DNA of 23,120 nt from Candidatus Hadarchaeota archaeon (GTDB taxonomy: Archaea; Hadarchaeota; Hadarchaeia; Hadarchaeales; Hadarchaeaceae). Every line of letters starts with the position of its first letter. Position 1 is the stretch's first letter. The notes beneath the pieces are model-generated. The model saw only the letters and a program-made list of their open reading frames with translations. It did not search any database and was not told the DNA's origin. Of this stretch, positions 1,282-21,000 are shown piece by piece. The position numbers were made by a program, and so were the translations under genes. Where the stretch lies: NCBI GenBank assembly GCA_964561735.1, contig CAZLQN010000005.1:1-23120 (forward strand). The letters run 5' to 3'.

Positions 1282-1459
1282 GCATTGCGTGGTCTGCGGC
1301 AGGGCGATTGAGCCGGATAAATTTATCTGCTCTCCCGCCTGCGAAGAGGTGATGAAAAGATCCCAGAAGCAGGCGGCGCGGATGAGATTTCTGATGATAG
1401 GGATGTTTGTGGCGCTTTTCGTCGTACTAATGGTCGTGAGCTATTTGAGACAAAGTTAG
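1265..1459 (+). CDS. Small Zn-ribbon plus C-terminal transmembrane helix protein (DUF2116-like)
   Basis: 64 aa with CVVCG...CSPAC, then the hydrophobic stretch FLMIGMFVALFVVLMVV. Overlaps the pyrH stop, which suggests translational coupling. Confidence 0.6.
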   Translation: MVEDHKHCVVCGRAIEPDKFICSPACEEVMKRSQKQAARMRFLMIGMFVALFVVLMVVSYLRQS

Positions 1460-4177
1460 GACATCCCTATCAAAATTTTTAGTGCTGGTTCAGAGATATC
1501 AATTATTTCCACTTTATGTCCAGCGCTCGCCGTCTCTCTCACCACTCTGACGTCTTCTTTGTCGATGGTGAATTTTTTCCCGTTCACGGCGATAGTTAGA
1601 TCTCCAATCTCTAGTTTTCTTGCAACATCTTCTGGGTCGGCTTCTGAAATGGCGCGCAGCACAGCTTTCGCGTCGGAACGCAAGCGTGGCCCAATTTTAG
1701 CAAAGTTTGGTTCAATCGATAGGACTCGCTCGACAACCTTTGGTTTTTCCGTCGTCACCAGAAGTTCTCGAATCTTCATTGTGCCTCGTATGTCGTCTAT
1801 GGCTTGCTCGAGAAGTTTCGCATTTTTTTCATCTGCAGCATATATCTCGACAGAAGGCAACTCGGCGCTGAGCGCTATCCCTTTCTCCGACTTGAATTGA
1901 CGGATGGTGCTGACAACTAAATTTATGAGTTCTCCCAGCTTTTCTGCGGCTTCATCTATGAATCTATCGTCCGCGACGGGCCACTCGGAGAGGTGTATGC
2001 TTGGTTGAGTGTAATTCGAGGCAAAATAATTGTGATATATCTCTTCTGCGAAATGTGGAACGAATGGTGCGAGCAACTTTGCCGCCGTCAAGATAATTTT
2101 GTAGAGCGTGAATTTTGATGCTTCCGCGGTCAAGTCCTCGCCATAGAGGCGATGTTTTACCTCTTCGATGTACATGTCGCAGAACTCATGCCAGATAAAA
2201 GTTTGTACGGCGATCAACGCGCGGTTGAATTGAAAATCCTCCAAATATGCGGTGACTTCTTTGACCAGGCGATTCATCCTGCTCAATATCCATCTATCTG
2301 TCGGTCTAAACTCAAGTTTTGATGGATCGGCGGTTGTGATGTTTACACTTTCGAAATATGGACTAGCGAATCGCGCGGCGTTCCAAAACTTGCGCATGAA
2401 TTTGTAACCGAACTCGACGTCCTTCCAAGCGAATGGAATGTCGGAGCCAGTGGAAGCGCCTATCGCGGCCCACTGCCTCAATGCGTCGGCCCCGTATCTT
2501 TCTCGAGCTTTCGTGGTGTCGACGTAGTTGCCAAGAGATTTGTGCATCGCCCTTCCGTCCGCCCCCAAGACCATGCCATTGACCAGCACGGTTTTGTATG
2601 GAACCTCGCCGACCAACGCCAGAGTGCGGACGAGCAAGTAGTAATCCCAAGTTCTAATTATGTCGGTGCCGTTCGGTTGAAGATCGGCGGGAAAGAGTCG
2701 TTTGTCTAAATTTGGCCATCCAGCGTGCGCAAGTATTGTTAGAGAGCTGTCCATCCAAGTGTCGAGCACATCCATCTCTGGGACAAATTTATCGCCACTA
2801 CATTTTTGGCATTTTTTATGAGGTTCATCTTTCGATGGGTTCACCGGTAACTGATTTTCGTCTGCGACCACTGGAGAGCCGCACTTTGAACAATACCATA
2901 CAGGGATAGGGGTCGCAAAAATGCGCTGTCTCGATATCACCCAGTCCCAGTCCATCGCCTCGGCCCACGCTATGAGGCGGGCGCGCATGTGATCGGGGAC
3001 CCAGCGCGCGCGCATGGCGCCTTCTATCACATCCTCCTTGAGATCGAGGACGCGCATGAACCACTGCTTTTTTGTTAATATTTCGACAGGCGTCTTGCAG
3101 CGCCAGCATACGCCGACGCTCTGTTTGAGTTTTTCCTGTCCACTCAACAGCCCACTTGTCTTGATTTTTTTGAGCACGAGTTCTTTGCACTCGGCAAGCG
3201 AGAGCCCCACGTACTCTCCAGCGGCCTCGCTCATGCGGCCACGCTCGTCGATGGCTTTTATGACGGGCAGCTTGTAGCGCATGGCCCAGCGGACATCCGT
3301 CTTGTCGCCGTAGGTGCATATCATCACCACGCCGGTGCCGAACTGCGGGTCGACCTCGCGATCCTCTATGATTTCTACGATTCGACCGAATACCGGAACT
3401 TCGAGTTTTTTCCCGACATATTTTTTGTAGCGTTCGTCATCGGGGTGGACGGCCACTACGACGCAGGCGTGAAGATACTCCGGGCGCGTCGTTGCGATGG
3501 TCAGAAAATCGTCTTTTCCAACAATTTTGAACTTGATATAGTTCAGCGAGCTATCGCGGTCGTCGTACTCGACTTCGGCGTCGGCTATCGCCGTCTCACA
3601 TCTCGGGCACCAGTTGACCGGATGCTCGCCGCGGTAGATCAAGCCCTTGTTGTAGAGCTGAACGAATGAGAGTTGCGTCTTGCTGTAGTAGCTGGGGTCC
3701 ATCGTGCGGTATTCTGTCGACCAGTCCATCGAGAAGCCCAGCGAGTTCATCTCCTCGCGCATGTGGGCGATGTTCTCCTCGGTGAGCTTGATGCAGAGCT
3801 CGCGGAATTTTTCAGGAGGGAGGTCGCCTTTGCGGATGCCGTAGCGCTTCTCTACTTGTACTTCCGTCGGTAGACCGTGACAGTCCCATGCAGGCCCCAT
3901 GAAATATTTTCACAGAGTTCCCTGGGGAAACAACACGTTGAAGCCGCGCATCCGCTTGTAGCGTGCGACGATATCGAAGTATGTCCAGTTGAACGCCGTC
4001 CCCATGTGAAATTCTCCGCTCGGTTCCACCCTATTAGGAATATGGCGGCGGAGTGTCGATCACATAGGTTGGTGTTTTTGCATCTTCTTTCTTGAATCTA
4101 TATATGTCTAGCTCGCTCCATCGTTGTTGCCATTTTGGCTCTACTTCGAGCGGGTTGTAATCTTTCGGAACTTCCAT
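1456..4177 (-). CDS. valS: Valyl-tRNA synthetase, split into three exons 4177..4040, 4023..3919, 3888..1456 (46+35+810 = 891 aa after removal of two BHB mini-introns)
   Basis: Exon 1 reads [20 protein letters not shown]...[10 protein letters not shown]. Exon 2 reads [35 protein letters not shown]. Exon 3 reads [14 protein letters not shown]...TTRPEYLH...WVISRQR...MHKSLGN. The joined sequence matches the archaeal ValRS N-terminal pattern PPPYP(S/T)G.LH.G...[30 protein letters not shown] as I recall it. A GGAGGTG SD lies 8 nt upstream of the ATG at 4177..4175. Read unspliced, the frame hits TAA TAG at 4036..4031 and TGA inside 3889..3918. Confidence 0.85.
3889..3918 (-). other. Putative BHB mini-intron 2 of valS (30 nt)
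   Basis: All helices are read on the minus strand. Outer helix UCCC(3928-3925)/GGGA(3887-3884). Central 4-bp helix CAGG(3924-3921)/CCUG(3894-3891). 3-nt bulges GAA(3920-3918) and CAU(3890-3888). Inner 10-bp stem CUCUGUGAAA(3917-3908)/UUUCAUGGGG(3904-3895) with an AUA loop. Cutting after the second nt of each bulge joins ...CAG GGA|UGG GAC (QG|WD). The insert contains an in-frame TGA. Confidence 0.8.
4024..4039 (-). other. Putative BHB mini-intron 1 of valS (16 nt)
   Basis: Minus strand. Outer helix CUCCGC-CG(4053-4046)/CG-A-GCGGAG(4022-4014), 8 bp with one bulged A. Central helix CCAU(4045-4042)/GUGG(4029-4026). 3-nt bulges AUU(4041-4039) and AAC(4025-4023). Inner stem CCU/AGG with an AAU loop. 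Cutting after the second bulge nt removes UCCUAAUAGGGUGGAA (includes TAA TAG), corrects the +1 frame offset and gives PPPY|PSGEFHMG. Confidence 0.8.
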
Positions 4178-4180: not shown

Positions 4181-6254
4181 TGCATACACCTCCTTGTTAG
4201 TTTTTACAGGTTATCTTATATCTCTGTATCCCATTTTAGTAATAACATATTTTGACAATATTGATTCTTTCGATTTTTTGATATATCGCCCTCTACTAAT
4301 TTTATGAATATATCCCCGGTCAGACATTTCTCGCAAAGCCACGATCGCTGGCATTGTCACTCGATTTGAATTAGGAACTTGGCTGCCACCTAGCCTCGTG
4401 GATATCATTGCCGCATCAACATACCCATGCTTTAGTTGAAGGTCATTAAGAATTGGCAGAATATATCGTTCATAGCGTAAGCATTGCTCAGCTGCTTTGT
4501 TGAGTGCGGCAGATTTTCTCGCGATTCGGAACCCAACTTTTCTGTTGTATTTAATCAAATTATCTGGACCACTAATACGGAGTTGCCATTTAGCCCGTAA
4601 TTTTCCATTAAGAGTTTGATAAATCTCTAGCGGGTGAACTGTAGAAGTTATGTTTAGCCTACTGAGAATCTTTTGTTCGTCGAGGATTATTTTTGGTGGA
4701 TGATCCGTGGCATATTTTTGAACACTGTCTTGCAAACGACTGAAGGTAATCCTTTCATTAGCTTCAAGCTCGATTTTGGGTAGAAGTCCAGTAATGTCAG
4801 TAGAGCGTCGCCAATAAATGCCGTATAAATTATGCTGTGGATGATAAACAACGTGCCCTTCATCATCTCCTGTTTGTTGGAGCCAAGCGATCCATATAGT
4901 TTCTTTTTCACTTTTCATCACAAACTCGGGAATGCCGTGATAACTCTCAGCTTTGGGGCTAGTCATCACTCCTACGATTAACAAAATATCACGCACAACA
5001 GTGGGATAAATCAGATAAGTGTCTTTGCTGAAATTAACTCTATATGTTTGAGCATTTCCTCCAAAAGCAGCGATTGCATCATCGATAGCGTTCTGTATTT
5101 GTTCTGGATCTTCTTTGGCAAAATAGATTAGCGATCCATAACCATGACGAGGCCCATAGCTTCTAGTTAGAATATCATCTCCACAGGCTCTAGCGGCTGT
5201 TCGCACGAATGCAGGGTGGTAAATGTCAACAGGCAGGTGAGGGTTATGTATCCCTCGCCCATGTTTTGGGCCTATCCATATCATGTGTTTTTGGGCAGCA
5301 TCCAGAGAAAACATTGGATTATACGTGTTCAAAAAATTTAACAATTTAATCAGTTTGTCTATTCTGATACGCCTACAATATTTGAGGTGATAGAAAATAC
5401 TTTTTGGATTGCCACATAATCTAGCGGCTTTGGTGAAATTATTACTCACCAGATTTTTTATTACATTACAGATCAATTGTACATATTGCTCTGATAATAC
5501 AACAAATGTTTGTTTCGGAGGCAGATCCCAGAAATTTATTGTGTGTAACAAACTTATCCCGCGTGGTCCTGTTAGACTGTATTTAAGCGTCTTTGGGGGA
5601 GGGAGAGGTCAGTGAAAGTAATATTTAAAATATCTTCTTTAGTACTTGTGGTAACTCAGTAAAACTATGAATTTCAAAATCAAAGTCATCGTTTGATTTT
5701 TCTCGAGCAAATTTAATTGTTTTGATACCTATCTCAGATGCCGGGCGAAGATTTTTTGACCTGTCGTCTACAAAAACACAGTCTAAAGGAGATGATTGGA
5801 TTCTATTTAACAGAACATTGTAAATTCTTTTGTCAGGTTTACGATATCCGACTTCTCCACTTACAACAACGATTTTGAATAGCCTGTTTAAACCGAATTT
5901 GGTGCATAGATAGTTAGACCATTCTTTCACATCATTACTCAATATCGCTAGAAAATAATTTTTTGTCAATGGTTTTGCAACCCCAATAAAATCAGGATCT
6001 ATCTCCAAGCACGTATCGAGATACTCTCTCTCAATTTCTAGATATTCGTCACCAAAGCCCAATTCTTTCCAGAAATCGAATGATGAAATCTCTCCTAAAC
6101 TTGCCCTTAAATACATTTCATTGATTTTCTCTGCAGAGATCATTTCATTTCTTTTTTGAATATATGGCACGAGTAAATCATTCACATCATCTGTAACTTT
6201 GAAAATGACGCCCATCATATCTAGAATAACCCATTTTGGCTCTACTTCGAGCGG
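4154..6254 (-). mobile_element. About 2.1-kb AT-rich insertion inside the 5' end of valS (two genes), bounded by the valS-start direct repeats; ends ambiguous within the 24-nt core
   Basis: Base composition shifts sharply to AT-rich between about 4181 and 6230. Imperfect 51-nt direct repeats with a perfect 24-nt core flank it. The cargo is unrelated to neighbouring housekeeping genes. No recognisable tyrosine or serine recombinase is present. Confidence 0.6.
4211..5551 (-). CDS. Hypothetical protein with an apparent double LAGLIDADG-like core flanked by an N-terminal HTH-like and a C-terminal winged-helix-like region (candidate homing-endonuclease relative)
   Basis: A 446-aa ORF in AT-rich DNA is unlikely to arise by chance. 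Two LAGLIDADG-position motifs are FVRTAARACGDDILT and IWIAWLQQTGDDEGHV. The second is preceded by K....GIPEFVMKSEKE. A typical post-core signature follows: LRISGPDNLIKYNRKVGFRIARKSAALNKA. The C-terminus AIVALREMSDRGYIHKISRGRYIKK looks like a winged helix. The start is TTG in the track, so the true start is uncertain. The family call comes from motif reading only. Confidence 0.45.
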   Translation of the reverse strand: MLHTINFWDLPPKQTFVVLSEQYVQLICNVIKNLVSNNFTKAARLCGNPKSIFYHLKYCRRIRIDKLIKLLNFLNTYNPMFSLDAAQKHMIWIGPKHGRGIHNPHLPVDIYHPAFVRTAARACGDDILTRSYGPRHGYGSLIYFAKEDPEQIQNAIDDAIAAFGGNAQTYRVNFSKDTYLIYPTVVRDILLIVGVMTSPKAESYHGIPEFVMKSEKETIWIAWLQQTGDDEGHVVYHPQHNLYGIYWRRSTDITGLLPKIELEANERITFSRLQDSVQKYATDHPPKIILDEQKILSRLNITSTVHPLEIYQTLNGKLRAKWQLRISGPDNLIKYNRKVGFRIARKSAALNKAAEQCLRYERYILPILNDLQLKHGYVDAAMISTRLGGSQVPNSNRVTMPAIVALREMSDRGYIHKISRGRYIKKSKESILSKYVITKMGYRDIR

Positions 6255-6278
6255 ATCGTAATCCTTTGAGACTTCCAT
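5625..6278 (-). CDS. HAD-superfamily hydrolase (subfamily IA-like) whose first 16 codons are a copy of the valS N-terminus
   Basis: Motif I ILDMMGV (nucleophile Asp present, Asp+2 replaced by Met). Motif II LAILSND. Motif III YRKPDKRIY. Motif IV VFVDDRSKNL. N-terminus [16 protein letters not shown] equals repeat copy B. Confidence 0.8.
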   Translation of the reverse strand: MEVSKDYDPLEVEPKWVILDMMGVIFKVTDDVNDLLVPYIQKRNEMISAEKINEMYLRASLGEISSFDFWKELGFGDEYLEIEREYLDTCLEIDPDFIGVAKPLTKNYFLAILSNDVKEWSNYLCTKFGLNRLFKIVVVSGEVGYRKPDKRIYNVLLNRIQSSPLDCVFVDDRSKNLRPASEIGIKTIKFAREKSNDDFDFEIHSFTELPQVLKKIF

Positions 6279-7265: not shown

Positions 7266-8117
7266 TCATTCAACGTTGGCGAAACTTTCTGGTTTTGGTC
7301 GCGCGAACGCCTCCAAGCCGGGCTGCTTGGCCGGGCGCTTCACCTTTATTTCTTTGTCGATGTTTACGCGCAGGCCGGCGTATCCAGGAGTCGTCTGGAC
7401 ACCGGTCTCCTCTTTTATCCGAGCCGCCTCCTTCTCAGGACTGTGCTTGAGGAAGAGCATACCCATGTGCATCATGACCGCCAGCTCCGGCTTCACCTCC
7501 TTCAAAAGCGAGATGAGGTCATCCGAGCAGAGGTGCCACTTGATGCGCATCGCCAGAGGCCTCGTGACGTTTGCTATCAGGATCCTGGAGTTTTTGAAAT
7601 TTTTCGCAAGTCCATAGAAATATTGCGTGTCTCCAGTGTAGCCGATTATCCCATCTTTCGTGTGAATCTTCAATCCAAACGCCGTCGGGTCGCTGTGTTG
7701 CGCTGGTGTAGCTTCAAGCTCGAGTTCATTGAGCTTGTAGGTTGTTCCTGGTTTCATATGGATGATCTCCGCTGGTTTTTCTTTGTGATAGTTTGAGATC
7801 GCTGGACCAAATTTTCCCATTCCTTTGAGCACGCTTTCGCTCCCCACGAATGCGCCGCGCTTCTTCGTCATGTGTTGGGTCATGGCTTCGATGAGCACCT
7901 CGGCATCGCAGTAGTGGTCGGGGTGGCAGTGGGTGACGACTACGCAATCGAGGTCAAGTGGACTCAGGCCGTGCTGGTGCGTGAGGAGGAGCGCTCCTGG
8001 GCCGGGGTCGACGTGTATCCTTGCGGTGTCATGAATTCGAAATCCTCCCGTGTTGAAAATTTGATCGATGGTCATGTAGCGCCCGCCGCCGCATCCCAGA
8101 AACACGAGTTCTACCAC
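7266..8117 (-). CDS. MBL-fold metallo-hydrolase
   Basis: 283 aa with VVVTHCHPDHYCD (the HxHxDH motif), plus downstream His/Asp ligand positions. GTG start with a GGTGA SD. Confidence 0.85.
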   Translation of the reverse strand: MVELVFLGCGGGRYMTIDQIFNTGGFRIHDTARIHVDPGPGALLLTHQHGLSPLDLDCVVVTHCHPDHYCDAEVLIEAMTQHMTKKRGAFVGSESVLKGMGKFGPAISNYHKEKPAEIIHMKPGTTYKLNELELEATPAQHSDPTAFGLKIHTKDGIIGYTGDTQYFYGLAKNFKNSRILIANVTRPLAMRIKWHLCSDDLISLLKEVKPELAVMMHMGMLFLKHSPEKEAARIKEETGVQTTPGYAGLRVNIDKEIKVKRPAKQPGLEAFARPKPESFANVE

Positions 8118-8148
8118 GTTGTCACCGCAAGAAGTTAATTGGTAATAT

Positions 8149-8883
8149 CTATCTCCGATTTTCCCTTACGTAACCGATTATTGCGTTATCAATTAATTTT
8201 GGTATAGAAGTGGTGAAATTTTCTTTATTTTTTCTTTTCCAATAAATAGTTTCAATGCGATCTACTTTTTTACAGATCAAATAGAATCCATCAAATACTT
8301 CTAAAAACATGTCTTTCTGCTTTTCTTCTGATTTTGGTATGTAGAGTTCCTTGACGAATTTTTCTTTATAAAAGAAATTTATGGTATGTCTTCTGTCTAT
8401 GGGTGGAATTAAATCAGGCAAGAGATGATGTAGTGTTTTAGAATTTCCAACTAATTTAGGTCTTTCCATTACTTCTGGATTTTTAGTTTCTTTTTTCATT
8501 ATTTCTAAATTTTCAAAGAGGTTTGATAAAGTTGGTTTTATTTTTTCCTTGTCATTATCATCTAATTCATGTAATTTAAATTTAGTTAATTTTTCTAACG
8601 TATCTATATTACTTCGGATATTTTGTTTAAAATTTTCAAAATCTTCTAATAACGCACTTTTAGTCATCCTGTGCATACCCCAAGAGGCCAAAGTAGCGTA
8701 GATACGTTCGATAAACATATCCTCTTTTTCCAATAATTCTCGATAATCTTTTGTGTTTCGAATCATGTAAAGAACTCTTCCATGAAAATAGACACTTGGA
8801 CCAGAAAAAGGATTTTTATAATATTTATCGACGAAAGACTCAAACTTCTTTGTTAATTTTTCGATTCTAGTTTCAACGTTCAT
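8149..8883 (-). CDS. Hypothetical protein (single gene of an AT-rich island)
   Basis: 244-aa ORF in strongly AT-rich DNA, Lys/Glu/Asn-rich. I cannot name a family. The conserved-looking segment is VGNSKTLHHLLPDLIPPIDRRHT. Confidence 0.65.
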   Translation of the reverse strand: MNVETRIEKLTKKFESFVDKYYKNPFSGPSVYFHGRVLYMIRNTKDYRELLEKEDMFIERIYATLASWGMHRMTKSALLEDFENFKQNIRSNIDTLEKLTKFKLHELDDNDKEKIKPTLSNLFENLEIMKKETKNPEVMERPKLVGNSKTLHHLLPDLIPPIDRRHTINFFYKEKFVKELYIPKSEEKQKDMFLEVFDGFYLICKKVDRIETIYWKRKNKENFTTSIPKLIDNAIIGYVRENRR

Positions 8884-8958
8884 AATTCTCGTTCATAACT
8901 ATAGACTCACAACCTTAAGTTAATTTTAATCCTGCGTTTTTTGTGCACAAAGTTCAAA

Positions 8959-9969
8959 CTAACGCCTGAGCTTCGGCAAGGGTTGGTCGAGCTTTTTTAG
9001 ACCCTTCTTCGCGTCGACGATGAGCTTCTTCAGGACCTCCTTCGCTTTCTCGTCCTTCGTCACCTTCAGCGAGTTCCTGGCAAATTTTACCACATCCTCC
9101 AAGTGGCGCTCGGGCTTGAAATTGCGGTCCCCCCAGTCGAAGATCGCGCAGATGTTGCCGGGCAGGAAGCCTGTATCGTAGTCGCCGTATGTCATGGTGA
9201 CGCGCTTTTTTGTCTCCTCGGGCAACATCGCTTCGCCAGCCTTTCTGAAGAGTAGATCGGTGCCGTTGTCCGCCAGACCGAAGAGGCCCTCGGCGACGAA
9301 GAGGTGGATGTCGAAATCCGGCCACCACTCGCGGAACCGTTTCTCCCACTCGAGCAGCTTGGTGCAGCCCTTGTAAGAGGCGGCGATGCTGAAGACGAGC
9401 AATTTTTGAACATCGTAGTCCCGTTCCCTGAGCTCGCTGCGCGTCGCTGCCAACGTCTGACTGAGCGAAACGCCTGTGGCTATTGTGTCGCCCGTGAAAA
9501 GGACGCCGTGTTCTGGGAGCGCATCGAAATTCGTGTAGAAGATGTAGGCGCCGAACTCGCCCCCGGAGATCCTGAATCGCCTAGCGCCGACGAAGCAGCG
9601 GGGCAGGTAACTGTTGAAGAGCTGCTCGAACGCCTGATCGAAGCCGTAGCCCAAGCTCCCGCGCAACACCACGATTTCGCTGATGTCGCGGGTGCTCAGC
9701 TTCTTCAGCCCAGGCAAGGTGTTCCAAGCAACCTTCAAAAAAGTCTTGCTGCATTCGAGCGCGAGGTCCCGAAGTTCCATGCCGCAGACCGTCGGATCGT
9801 ACAAAATTTTTCTGGCCGGGGGCATGCACACGATGTGGGTGTTCTTCGGCAATTGGAGATGTTCGACCTTGTAAATGCTGGAGCCGGCCACCGTCCCGAT
9901 CTTTTTTGGATTGGTCACGCGAGCACCGTTGAATTTTCTCATCACATCTATTAAAGTTCGCCAGCTCAC
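8959..9969 (-). CDS. Uracil-phosphoribosyltransferase-like (type I PRT fold) protein, divergent
   Basis: 336 aa. VVLRGSLGYG, ARRFRI, a PRPP-loop-like VLFTGDTIATGVSLSQTL, and C-terminal LPGNICAIFDWGDRNF parallel the UPRTase blocks ILRAG / RDE / DPMLATGGS / PGLGDAGDR. It is longer than canonical Upp. Confidence 0.55.
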   Translation of the reverse strand: MSWRTLIDVMRKFNGARVTNPKKIGTVAGSSIYKVEHLQLPKNTHIVCMPPARKILYDPTVCGMELRDLALECSKTFLKVAWNTLPGLKKLSTRDISEIVVLRGSLGYGFDQAFEQLFNSYLPRCFVGARRFRISGGEFGAYIFYTNFDALPEHGVLFTGDTIATGVSLSQTLAATRSELRERDYDVQKLLVFSIAASYKGCTKLLEWEKRFREWWPDFDIHLFVAEGLFGLADNGTDLLFRKAGEAMLPEETKKRVTMTYGDYDTGFLPGNICAIFDWGDRNFKPERHLEDVVKFARNSLKVTKDEKAKEVLKKLIVDAKKGLKKLDQPLPKLRR

Positions 9970-13723: not shown

Positions 13724-13816
13724 GGGCCCGTAGCTCAGCTTGGCTGGAGCGCTCGGCTGATAACCAGTTGGGCAGCCACCGGGAGGTCCTGGGTTCAAAT
13801 CCCAGCGGGCCCACCA
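13724..13816 (+). tRNA. tRNA-Ile (anticodon GAU) with a 15-nt intron at canonical position 37/38 (13763..13777); genome-encoded CCA
   Basis: GGGCCCG UA GCUC AGCUUGGCUG GAGC G CUCGG CUGAUA[ACCAGUUGGGCAGCC]A CCGGG AGGUC CUGGG UUCAAAU CCCAG CGGGCCC A CCA. The intron forms a relaxed BHB: CUG/CAG pairing of the anticodon region with the intron, and bulges UAA and CCA. Confidence 0.9.
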
Positions 13817-19626: not shown

Positions 19627-19655
19627 CTCCCCGCCGATGCTTTGGTCGAAGGGTG

Positions 19656-19663
19656 TTTATAAA
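19656..19663 (-). promoter_or_regulatory. TATA box (TTTATAAA) for the small ORF / hyp operon direction
   Basis: About 40 nt upstream of the GTG at 19617 on the minus strand. Located between palindrome sites 2 and 3. Confidence 0.45.
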
Positions 19664-19679
19664 GACAGAACAAACACCG

Positions 19680-19693
19680 TGCACGGCCGTGCA
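19680..19693. promoter_or_regulatory. Palindromic site 3: TGCACGGCCGTGCA (perfect)
   Basis: Sits between the two divergent TATA boxes. It ends 4 nt upstream of TTATATA, which is the BRE position of the flavodiiron promoter. Confidence 0.6.
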
Positions 19694-19697
19694 TTCG

Positions 19698-19704
19698 TTA
19701 TATA
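19698..19704 (+). promoter_or_regulatory. TATA box (TTATATA) of the flavodiiron protein gene
   Basis: Consensus-like archaeal TATA element about 100 nt upstream of the ATG at 19804. Flanked by palindrome sites 3 and 4. Confidence 0.5.
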
Positions 19705-19731
19705 GGCGTTTGCCAAACGAGATGAAAATTG

Positions 19732-19745
19732 TGCACGGCCGTGAA
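19732..19745. promoter_or_regulatory. Palindromic site 4: TGCACGGCCGTGAA (13/14)
   Basis: Starts about 28 nt downstream of the TATA box 19698-19704, which is the expected transcription start of the flavodiiron gene. Confidence 0.6.
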
Positions 19746-19803
19746 GTTAGCAGGGACAGATCGGCTAAATAGATACGAGCGAAATAACTTTTGTTGGGTT
19801 AAA

Positions 19804-21000
19804 ATGGTCAAGGTCGTCGAGATTTCCAAAGGCATTTTCTGGGTTGGGGTTGAGGACAAGCATCGTAGGATATTTGACAGTCTAATAACTCTGCCGTATG
19901 GGACGTCTTACAATTCATATTTAGTGGTCGGGAAGGACAAGACCGCACTGATCGACACAGTCAATCCAGGATTCGAGAAAGAATTTTTTAAAAAAATTGG
20001 CAAAGTTGTGAATCCAGAAAAGATAGATTATTTGATAATGAACCACGCTGAACCCGACCACGCTGGCGGGATATCAGAGGTTTTGTCGAAAGCTAGATAC
20101 GCGAAACTTGTTGCCACTCAGAAGGGTGCAGAGATGGCGGGGGTTTTCCACGGTGTGCCACCCGAGCGGACGATGGTCGTCAGAGATGGGGATACTTTGG
20201 ACTTGGGTGGAAAGACGTTGAAGTTCATCGAGGCCCCATGGTTGCACTGGCCAGAGACGATGTTCACATATTGCGAAGAGGATGGAGTTCTATTCTCATG
20301 TGATTTCTTCGGTTCACACATCGCTTCCAATCGACTTTTCGACGATGAGTTTGGGGATATCCTTCACATAGAGGCCAAACGGTACTATTCAGAAATCATG
20401 ATGCCGTTCAACAAGTTCGTGTCGAATGGTTTGGATAAGGTCAAGGAAATCGATGTCAGGATGGTTGCGCCTAGTCATGGCCCAATCTACAAAAATCCAA
20501 GGAGAATAATCGATGCTTACGAGAAATGGGCTCGTGGACCGCTCGAGCAAAAGGTGGTAGTAGTCTACGTTTCGATGTGGGGAAATACCGAGGCGATGGC
20601 GAAAATCATCACAGATGCAATATTGAAAGAGGGCGTGGAAGCTGTATCGTACAACGCGTTTGCAACTGATGTTTCTTACATCGCCAGGGATTTGGTGGAT
20701 GCGAGCGCGGTGGTAGTGGGTTCTCCGACATTGCTGGGTGGAGTGCATCCGGTCGTCGGTTTGGTTGTGAGTCTAATAAAAGCGTTGAGGCCGCGCTTGA
20801 AGTATGCGGCGATCTTCGGTTCCTACGGCTGGGGCGGTGGGGCTGTGGATCGAATAAAAACCACATTGCAATCTGCCGGGCTTGAGATAATGGATGTTTC
20901 AAGTGTGAGGGGAAAACCCAAGAAAGAAGATTTTGAGAAGGCAGAAAATCTTGGTAAACTTGTTGCACAAAAAGTTAAAGAAATCGTAAAAATTTCCTAA
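19804..21000 (+). CDS. Flavodiiron protein (FprA/ROO-type O2 or NO reductase)
   Basis: MVKVVEISKGIFWVG..., a metallo-beta-lactamase-like diiron domain (NHAEPDHAG) followed by a flavodoxin-like domain (VVVVYVSMWGNTE). The track ORF start at 19729 lies inside the promoter and operator, so it is rejected. Confidence 0.9.
   Translation: MVKVVEISKGIFWVGVEDKHRRIFDSLITLPYGTSYNSYLVVGKDKTALIDTVNPGFEKEFFKKIGKVVNPEKIDYLIMNHAEPDHAGGISEVLSKARYAKLVATQKGAEMAGVFHGVPPERTMVVRDGDTLDLGGKTLKFIEAPWLHWPETMFTYCEEDGVLFSCDFFGSHIASNRLFDDEFGDILHIEAKRYYSEIMMPFNKFVSNGLDKVKEIDVRMVAPSHGPIYKNPRRIIDAYEKWARGPLEQKVVVVYVSMWGNTEAMAKIITDAILKEGVEAVSYNAFATDVSYIARDLVDASAVVVGSPTLLGGVHPVVGLVVSLIKALRPRLKYAAIFGSYGWGGGAVDRIKTTLQSAGLEIMDVSSVRGKPKKEDFEKAENLGKLVAQKVKEIVKIS

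Follow-up and report, generated by a model that had tools for sequence, protein, structure and literature searches.

Two probable bulge-helix-bulge introns in the valyl-tRNA synthetase gene of a Hadarchaeota archaeon

The valS locus and its two inserts

We analysed a 23,120-nt contig of Candidatus Hadarchaeota archaeon (CAZLQN010000005.1, assembly GCA_964561735.1; hereafter the window, meaning this whole stretch), on which valS, the gene for valyl-tRNA synthetase (ValRS), occupies positions 4177..1456 of the minus strand. The gene is interrupted twice, by a 16-nt insert at 4039..4024 and by a 30-nt insert at 3918..3889. The host gene was assigned to valS by PF00133 and PF08264, it lies in a conserved valS-DUF2116-pyrH-eRF1 neighbourhood, and it is the sole valS visible in the window. 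A GGAGGTG sequence is located 8 nt 5' of its start codon (ATG at 4177). We interpret the two inserts as probable archaeal bulge-helix-bulge (BHB) introns, and the gene is accordingly divided into the following parts:

4040..4177, minus strand: valS exon 1, M1 to Y46 at the PPPY junction; aligns with residues 1-46 of intact Hadarchaeota ValRS
4024..4039, minus strand: intron 1, 16 nt, with in-frame TAA TAG
3919..4023, minus strand: valS exon 2, 35 codons, PSGEFHMGT...NVLFPQG; holds the HIGH-motif region
3889..3918, minus strand: intron 2, 30 nt, with in-frame TGA
1456..3888, minus strand: valS exon 3, WDCHGLPTE... to the stop codon; called as an 814-aa open reading frame (ORF) with a false MGPA start

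On the minus strand, exon 1 ends in ATC GAC ACT CCG CCG CCA TAT and runs into TCC TAA TAG, the two stop codons lying at 4036-4034 (TAA) and 4033-4031 (TAG). After insert 1 the valS frame is picked up one base out of phase, as CCG AGC GGA GAA TTT CAC ATG GGG. At the second break TTT CCC CAG GGA is followed by ACT CTG TGA, in which the TGA is in frame. The 814-aa ORF reported by the ORF finder (1456..3900) restarts at a chance ATG (3900) within insert 2 and reads MGPA/WDCHG (here and below a slash within a peptide or between codons marks an exon junction); the product of this false start from this contig is present in public protein collections, and an exact-sequence look-up assigns the contig to Hadesarchaea archaeon CG08_land_8_20_14_0_20_51_8. 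Insert 1 has the sequence TCCTAATAGGGTGGAA (the same as UCCUAAUAGGGUGGAA) and insert 2 the sequence ACTCTGTGAAAATATTTCATGGGGCCTGCA (the same as ACUCUGUGAAAAUAUUUCAUGGGGCCUGCA). Self-splicing introns of group I or group II were considered and rejected, as 16 and 30 nt are far below the hundreds of nucleotides of a ribozyme core. An Rfam search across the window at gathering thresholds returned two tRNAs and nothing else.

Deletion of both inserts yields a 2676-nt ORF that encodes an 891-aa ValRS. This spliced protein is colinear with intact Hadarchaeota ValRS at 93%, 91% and 80% identity and with about 90 further homologues, and its top database matches are Hadarchaeota/Hadesarchaea ValRS of 887-897 aa. 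The stretches PPPY/PSGEFHMGT and FPQG/WDCHGLPTE are unbroken in all intact Hadarchaeota ValRS retrieved. Because a one-base shift of either junction alters the encoded residues, both junctions are uniquely fixed by homology. An earlier reading of the same DNA, made from its letters alone (the sequence-only reading), had described valS as broken twice, with the ORF restarting at an artefactual MGPA, and had proposed that removal of 16 and 30 nt restores an 891-aa ValRS. The breaks are as it placed them, to the nucleotide, the 2676-nt ORF and its homologues agree with the restored product, and in the alignment with archaeal ValRS that it had suggested the junction residues of the conceptual protein are contiguous.

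BHB folds and their conservation among relatives

Minimum-energy folds were computed with ViennaRNA on contexts of 53, 55, 86, 91 and 216 nt. In all five contexts the minimum-energy structure at both sites is a helix, a 3-nt bulge, a 4-bp helix, a second 3-nt bulge and a helix, that is, the strict hBHBh' motif:

4014..4053, minus strand: BHB motif 1; pairing of 4053-4046 with 4022-4021 plus 4019-4014 (outer helix) and of 4045-4042 with 4029-4026 (central helix), a hairpin of 4038-4030 inside, and bulges at 4041-4039 and 4025-4023; cleavage predicted at 4040/4039 and 4024/4023
3884..3928, minus strand: BHB motif 2; pairing of 3928-3925 with 3887-3884 (outer helix), of 3924-3921 with 3894-3891 (central helix) and of 3917-3908 with 3904-3895 (inner stem, closed by the loop 3907-3905), and bulges at 3920-3918 and 3890-3888; cleavage predicted at 3919/3918 and 3889/3888

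The outer helix of motif 1, CUCCGCCG/CG(A)GCGGAG, has 8 bp with A4020 bulged; the central helix is CCAU/GUGG, the bulges are AUU and AAC, and the inner hairpin is CCU-AAU-AGG. Motif 2 combines an outer helix UCCC/GGGA, a central helix CAGG/CCUG and bulges GAA and CAU with a 10-bp inner stem, three of whose pairs are G-U, and a loop AUA. Over the alleles described below the inner helix ranges from 3 to 4 bp in motif 1 and from 7 to 14 bp in motif 2. The strand layout is that of a pre-tRNA, in which the exon gives the 5' strand of the central helix and bulge 1 consists of the last two exon nucleotides and the first intron nucleotide. In pre-tRNA, positions 34-35 lie within the BHB central helix and the cut falls after position 37 (PMC4090602); from this description we derived the rule that cleavage follows the second bulge nucleotide. 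Applied to valS, the rule removes exactly the 16 and 30 nt required by homology, and it holds for all variant intron lengths.

The same two introns were seen in more than 25 independent contigs (JGI, ENA, NCBI and Logan). A metagenome search based on the exons only, with a codon-degenerate pattern for PPPY, a free gap of 8-38 nt and PSGEFHMG, returned 15 contigs, all of which carry the same intron-1 family (UCCU...AGGGUGGAA, 19 or 16 nt) at the same junction. Intron 2 (30-42 nt) is present in 13 of these 15 contigs (one contig ends inside the intron) and missing from the other two. Intron-1 homologues have 16 or 19 nt, and more than 20 contigs have a 19-nt version (UCCUCGCAAGAGGGUGGAA or a variant of it) between exactly the same codons; intron-2 homologues at the same junction have 30, 37, 38, 39, 41 or 42 nt, and the spacing between the two introns is 105 nt in all loci.

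The databases contain several Hadarchaeota valS products that lack the N-terminus, one of which also begins MGPAWDCHG; about 10% of Hadarchaeota valS matches are affected by truncation of this kind, caused by mis-calling. The contigs of truncated homologues provided five more intron-bearing loci (Logan, JGI and ENA), four with both introns (L001, L004, L005 and L006) and one with intron 1 only (L002). Both introns are also carried by the Hadarchaeaceae metagenome-assembled genome (MAG) GCA_046761105.1 at NCBI, and further intron-bearing contigs were reached via the neighbouring LAGLIDADG-like gene that is described in the next section. P0090, suspected to be an interrupted allele, was discarded, as it has merely a mis-called start codon and no intron; in L003, too, the start codon is simply mis-called. 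A contig scan with the spliced protein retrieved only intron-less Hadarchaeota species representatives and many distant ValRS, with no intron-bearing genomes among them; the intron-less Hadarchaeota representatives served as the intron-less control set.

The intron-bearing alleles extend to ValRS that are 67-72% identical to that of the window. Across them the BHB cores are invariant, including every central-helix pair at both sites, whereas the intron interiors vary in length and sequence. Standard pairs fill 98.1% of cells at intron 1, against 43-53% when the partners are slid, and 98.9% at intron 2, against 31-52%. Compensatory changes comprise a switch from U-A to C-G in one outer-helix pair of motif 1, where both bases are third positions and both changes are synonymous, and double changes at three pairs of the intron-2 inner stem. 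RNAalifold, to which no structure was supplied, yields the same consensus at both sites. The canonical geometry that the sequence-only reading had drawn at both sites is therefore recovered by individual folds and by the consensus, and its cut rule reproduces the homology-required junctions at both; its 8-bp exon-exon helix in motif 1 stands as well, except that the bulged A4020 had gone unmentioned. It had further asked whether orthologous insertions keep the BHB pairing in relatives, which they do at the percentages given above, and had argued against an assembly error, a position upheld by the independent assemblies from many samples. The origin of the contig in a MAG could speak for an assembly or sequencing artefact. 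However, the same inserts recur in the more than 25 independently assembled contigs with natural variation that preserves the structure, and we consider the probability of an artefact negligible.

Motifs of this type are common by chance when position is left free. A permissive BHB scanner identified 103 and 157 motifs on the two strands of the window as against 105-142 in shuffled sequence, and a scan of the whole window with an 'ORF-restoring' filter gave only implausible matches in alternative frames. Since the counts equal those of shuffled sequence, we claim no further mRNA introns in the window. For a fixed combination of position and length the chance rate is ~4e-5, and for two homology-predefined junction pairs that both meet the motif it is roughly 1e-9 jointly. 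Chance does not account for both predefined junctions fitting the BHB motif together with the conservation of the motif in relatives.

The coding sequence around the junctions is constrained beyond the protein. In 16 distinct intron-1 alleles each residue of P-P-Y/P-S is encoded by a single codon (CCG CCA TAT/CCG AGC), whereas 3-4 different codons are found for other four-fold degenerate residues of the same alleles, and 2-4 at the P-P-Y/P-S sites of intron-less alleles. P-Q-G before intron 2 is fixed as CCC CAG GGA only where intron 2 is present. Synonymous codon choice is thus frozen where an intron has to be removed and nowhere else, which means that RNA-level selection acts on the exon half of each motif in the presence of an intron. 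This codon freezing is the strongest single argument for BHB introns. Three intron-less alleles, L010, L012 and L103, keep the intron-type exon codons CCGAGCGGGG at the intron-1 site (~2621-2660 in each), and L012 also keeps CCGCCATAT; such codons could be the trace of an intron that was lost precisely, or could mark a site pre-adapted to insertion.

The same observations bear on the possibility that valS is a decaying pseudogene with two small insertions and that a functional ValRS is encoded elsewhere in the genome. The colinear reading is indeed broken by stop codons and a frameshift, and 23 kb of the genome is visible. However, both insertions are kept at identical junctions down to 67-72% protein identity, the exons have no other lesion, and the locus retains the synteny of the intact valS of relatives. 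The extra constraint on the synonymous sites that build the BHB motifs would also not be seen in a dead gene, and we regard this explanation as very improbable.

Ribosomal recoding without RNA splicing, whether by +1 frameshifting, stop readthrough or bypassing of the gene-60 type, is another alternative. The short hairpin-forming inserts open with stop codons and loosely resemble the coding gap of T4 gene 60. Against this, neither site has matched take-off and landing codons in the correct frame: no TAT follows TAT downstream, and landing on the GGA inside UGGGAC would give the wrong frame. Intron lengths (16/19 nt and 30-42 nt) cover every phase while the BHB geometry is the conserved feature, and the conserved exon-exon helices have no role in bypassing. 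Recoding is, in our estimate, highly improbable.

We therefore conclude that valS is very probably interrupted by two archaeal BHB introns and that its pre-mRNA is spliced by EndA and RtcB. Each intron would pair with the flanking exon in the pre-mRNA to form a strict BHB motif. EndA would cleave after the second nucleotide of every bulge, at 4040/4039, 4024/4023, 3919/3918 and 3889/3888; an RtcB-type ligase would then join the exons, and the introns would presumably be freed as small circles. The spliced mRNA would give the complete 891-aa ValRS, whereas unspliced RNA would give a 47-residue peptide only. We infer the participation of EndA and RtcB from the motifs and from a further feature of the contig:

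13724..13816, plus strand: tRNA-Ile(GAU), interrupted by a 15-nt intron between the canonical positions 37/38

The presence of this intron on the contig indicates that the host uses the endonuclease/ligase splicing pathway. In our manual reading the tRNA-Ile BHB is less regular than the valS motifs, with one of its four central pairs being A·G and a very short inner helix, and it is therefore used only as a sign of tRNA splicing and not as a structural comparator. A regulatory effect of valS splicing may also exist, for example a coupling of ValRS supply to tRNA-splicing capacity.

Several observations weigh against splicing or limit what it implies. Neither EndA nor RtcB is encoded within the 23-kb window. 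A look-up among 15 billion collected proteins did not find the exact spliced 891-aa sequence, and no assembled spliced transcript was found. Very close relatives exist and live without the introns, which are thus dispensable, so that a function is not implied. The genome is seen as one 23-kb contig only, and a second valS could therefore lie elsewhere. The stability of the minimal hairpins is unexceptional (z = -2.0 for BHB1 and -1.2 for BHB2; the 86-nt BHB1 context has z = -3.7), and intron 1 falls short of significance in its shuffle controls (84/500). Because the BHB cores are invariant, covariation supports the motifs only through the one outer-helix pair and the intron-2 inner stem. With these points taken into account, splicing of valS is still a strong inference.

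The upstream LAGLIDADG-like gene and the mosaic 5' end of valS

The region upstream of valS contains two features that the sequence-only reading, which had recognised both introns, did not report; the intron-less relatives at 93% identity had also escaped it:

4211..5551, minus strand: LAGLIDADG homing-endonuclease-like gene, 446 aa, free-standing; ends 33 nt upstream of the valS ATG
6231..6278, minus strand: duplicate of the first 16 valS codons, forming the N-terminus of the HAD-hydrolase ORF 5625..6278; left edge of the cassette

The 446-aa ORF is annotated as hypothetical (PIU14340.1). Its protein has a helix-turn-helix-like N-terminal part and a double LAGLIDADG core, to which the long type represented in the window adds a C-terminal winged-helix-like extension. 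In other Hadarchaeota lineages its place is taken by members of another subfamily, which have 352 aa and are 31% identical to it. PF14528 (LAGLIDADG_3) is matched by 13 of 13 family members, all below the gathering score (best E 4e-4; for the window protein E 0.18 and 12.5 bits at a cut-off of 22.5), and sequence and profile searches of the PDB with the 446-aa ORF gave no real matches. Structure prediction needed an alignment-based run, which produced an AF2 model with pLDDT 78 and pTM 0.77; the single-sequence AlphaFold model had pLDDT 33. In a Foldseek search against the PDB the alignment-based model matched the TliVMA intein endonuclease (E 1.9e-7), followed by PI-SceI, WhiA (a non-nuclease), I-OnuI, I-CreI and I-SceI. 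As modelled, the product of ORF 4211..5551 has the double LAGLIDADG alpha-beta-beta-alpha-beta-beta-alpha fold, and its nuclease activity is putative. D125 and D229-D230-E231 are invariant in both subfamilies and may correspond to the catalytic acidic residues, as suggested by their position in the motifs only.

In comparison with intron-less relatives, the LAGLIDADG-like gene stands out as a clean insertion of 1.25-1.5 kb within the spacer that precedes valS. The copy in the window belongs to a low-GC cassette of ~2.1 kb that consists of the HAD hydrolase, the LAGLIDADG gene and a replacement valS 5' end (GC 35-41% vs 48-56% in the flanks). The duplicate at 6231..6278 is preceded by the original BtpA-valS spacer; in L103, the closest intron-less relative, BtpA lies directly upstream of valS and there is no cassette. 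An ORF of no assigned family that lies upstream of the intron-less valS of L003 was compared with the LAGLIDADG-like protein and is unrelated to it.

A neighbour-joining tree of exon 3 places the intron-bearing alleles scattered in one large Hadarchaeota subclade, mixed with intron-less alleles at very short distances. The nearest ValRS relatives (P0001, 93% amino-acid identity) are intron-less and come from genomic contigs of 17-113 kb with full synteny to the window locus. We rejected the idea that intron-less close relatives represent spliced cDNA, since P0001 is genomic and exon 1 of the intron-less L102 differs strongly from that of its intron-bearing twin L002; the intron-less alleles are thus real at the DNA level.

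Pairs of close relatives have a mosaic 5' end. Between the window and L098 (Ga0315282_10069647), identity is 99.2% in the upstream region and reaches 100% along 2.1 kb of exon 3; in exon 1 it is only 83%, and the two have a different intron 1 (16 nt in the window, 19 nt in L098). The exon-1 patch 4040..4177 was compared also with L089 and L103. L002, with intron 1, and L102, with none, are 98-99.7% identical in exon 3 but 72% in exon 1. The same mosaic, with its breakpoint at intron 2, separates L095 (both introns) from L007 (none). Intron 1 occurs alone in L002, L092/L097 and L117, and intron 2 alone in L109 (L109-L112, ~3995-4140 in L109). The intron-1 site of L109 reads CCGCCGCCATAC directly followed by CCGAGCGGAG, a sequence suggestive of precise loss. 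We read the 5' end of valS as a hot spot of recombination, at which introns enter and leave with exchanged 5' segments between very close lineages. The LAGLIDADG endonuclease gene possibly assists this gain and loss at the DNA level.

The gene and the introns are associated. All of the ~14 distinct loci that are positive for the LAGLIDADG gene have at least one valS intron, and none of 10 distinct intron-less loci has the gene (Fisher p ~0.003, uncorrected for phylogeny; a single locus seems to deviate, and its contig is truncated). Three loci that had been picked via the endonuclease gene alone all had introns. Intron 2 is present at 8 of 8 loci with the long type of the gene and intron 1 at 7 of 7 loci with the short type. 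Single-intron alleles agree with this pairing, the intron-2-only ones having the long type and the intron-1-only ones the short type.

These patterns raise the question of whether the inserts act first of all at the DNA level, by disrupting a target site and either accompanying the adjacent LAGLIDADG endonuclease or guarding against it, with BHB splicing making them harmless. The unit would then be a composite mobile element of an endonuclease gene and ORF-less introns, a view that extends the splicing interpretation and does not exclude it. It draws on the modelled double LAGLIDADG fold and conserved acidic motif residues of ORF 4211..5551, on the clean low-GC insertion of 1.25-2.1 kb directly upstream of valS, and on the finding of the gene upstream only at intron-bearing loci, including the three selected by the gene alone. 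The exon 1/exon 2 mosaic with breakpoints at the intron sites is what co-conversion tracts would be expected to leave, the pairing of each gene type with one intron points in the same direction, and the two introns are inserted where the coding sequence is best conserved, as is typical of homing targets. The concept itself is documented in phage group I introns (PMC3984707, PMC2790892).

On the other side, the non-nuclease WhiA is also among the fold matches, and both endonuclease activity and target site are putative. Seven or eight intron-bearing alleles are without the gene. The association is confounded by shared ancestry and by the sampling of loci, and the type-to-intron pairing is based on four discriminating alleles only. 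Most of the pattern is explained by simple hitch-hiking of the introns on co-conversion tracts that start from a target in the spacer upstream, so that the introns themselves need not be the target. On balance we view a primarily DNA-level role as a possibility that falls short of even chances.

More specifically, the two mini-introns and the free-standing LAGLIDADG gene might form a composite 'collaborative homing' system, which would be the first for archaeal BHB introns; we put this forward tentatively and consider it rather unlikely. Each endonuclease type would cut intron-less valS at or near one intron site, in the HIGH-motif or the WDCHG stretch, the 446-aa type accompanying intron 2 and the 352-aa type intron 1. 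The intron would split the site and so shield its carrier, and repair of the break would transfer the endonuclease gene to the recipient together with exon 1 and the intron or introns. Alternatively, the endonuclease would target the empty spacer and the introns would hitch-hike on the co-conversion tracts.

Other features of the window lie apart from this locus. A second low-GC island at 8001..9000 (31-36% GC) holds a 244-aa ORF (8149..8883, minus strand) with no Pfam match, and the adjacent 336-aa ORF (8959..9969, minus strand) has no match either. The near-palindromic sequence GTGCACGGCCGTG, which surfaced in the output of the BHB scan, occurs twice at ~19654..19794 (plus strand) in the intergenic region upstream of a flavodiiron-protein gene (19729..21000); the two copies could be an operator.

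Comparison with known BHB introns and significance

BHB introns in cbf5 pre-mRNA were reportedly described by Watanabe in 2002 and by Yoshinari in 2006, and are treated by Yokobori in 2009 (PMC2738675). In the accessible parts of the literature, the documented archaeal mRNAs spliced by EndA are cbf5, within the coding sequence, and HVO_1309, within the 5' untranslated region (PMC10485636, PMC7714728, PMC2738675), and a 2023 review counts two spliced archaeal mRNAs in total and expects more (PMC10485636). The cbf5 introns are cut by EndA, with ligation of the exons, in Crenarchaeota (PMC2738675, PMC10485636); those of Desulfurococcales and Sulfolobales have 16-44 nt and a relaxed BHB and are linked to heteromeric EndA (PMC2738675). 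Literature searches on Hadarchaeota introns and on BHB introns in protein-coding genes and in synthetase genes found nothing on valS, and the novelty that the sequence-only reading had claimed is consistent with this literature, in which cbf5 and HVO_1309 are the sole documented cases.

The valS introns belong to the cbf5-type class, in a new gene and a new phylum, with two introns per gene and strictly canonical motifs. As in cbf5, a short ORF-less BHB intron breaks the frame of a housekeeping coding sequence (16-42 nt in valS and 16-44 nt in cbf5), its distribution is patchy with inferred gains and losses, and its removal is expected from EndA and a ligase. In contrast to cbf5 of the crenarchaeal Desulfurococcales and Sulfolobales, the Hadarchaeota gene is valS. 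It has two introns 105 nt apart, both with strict hBHBh' motifs, where the cbf5 motif is relaxed, and the presence of its introns varies between near-identical genomes. A LAGLIDADG-like gene adjoins valS, whereas the cbf5 intron is too short for a nuclease and no linked one is described in the accessible part of PMC2738675.

With tRNA introns the valS introns share the geometry (a 4-bp helix, two 3-nt bulges and flanking helices) and the predicted cut positions, and they are of similar size to archaeal tRNA introns, which have 11-129 nt with medians of 12-25 (PMC4090602). The valS substrate differs in being an mRNA whose exon half must also encode PPPY/PSG and FPQG/WD; the need to encode these conserved residues leaves the synonymous codons frozen. 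HVO_1309 of Haloferax volcanii likewise provides an mRNA substrate of EndA outside Crenarchaeota, with an enzyme of strict specificity (PMC7714728, PMC10485636), but its intron lies in the 5' untranslated region, so no reading frame depends on splicing. Ribosomal RNA BHB introns with LAGLIDADG ORFs and phage collaborative homing resemble the valS locus in the link between a conserved-site intron and a homing endonuclease (PMC3984707, PMC2790892, PMC6083498), in presence/absence polymorphism and in the co-conversion of flanking exons. They differ in that the endonuclease-like gene of the valS locus, of putative nuclease activity, lies outside the introns, ~170 and ~290 nt upstream of them. Unlike group I and rRNA introns, the valS introns are BHB mini-introns in a protein-coding gene.

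For more than 20 years cbf5 has been the sole archaeal protein-coding sequence known to need the tRNA-splicing endonuclease. If the splicing interpretation is correct, BHB splicing of coding mRNA would not be confined to Crenarchaeota with broad-specificity EndA, and textbook-strict motifs would be used in a phylum of euryarchaeal grade; an essential translation enzyme could depend on two BHB splicing events. Because standard gene callers mis-annotate the intron-bearing genes as N-terminally truncated, BHB-aware annotation would be needed for archaeal MAGs. Near-identical genomes that differ in having or lacking the introns, and a LAGLIDADG gene linked to the intron-bearing state, would provide a testable system for the movement of BHB introns. 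Should collaborative homing also be true, it would supply the DNA-level mechanism, so far missing, by which ORF-less archaeal BHB introns enter and spread, and it would account for the mosaic exons and for the presence/absence polymorphism of the introns in Hadarchaeota valS.

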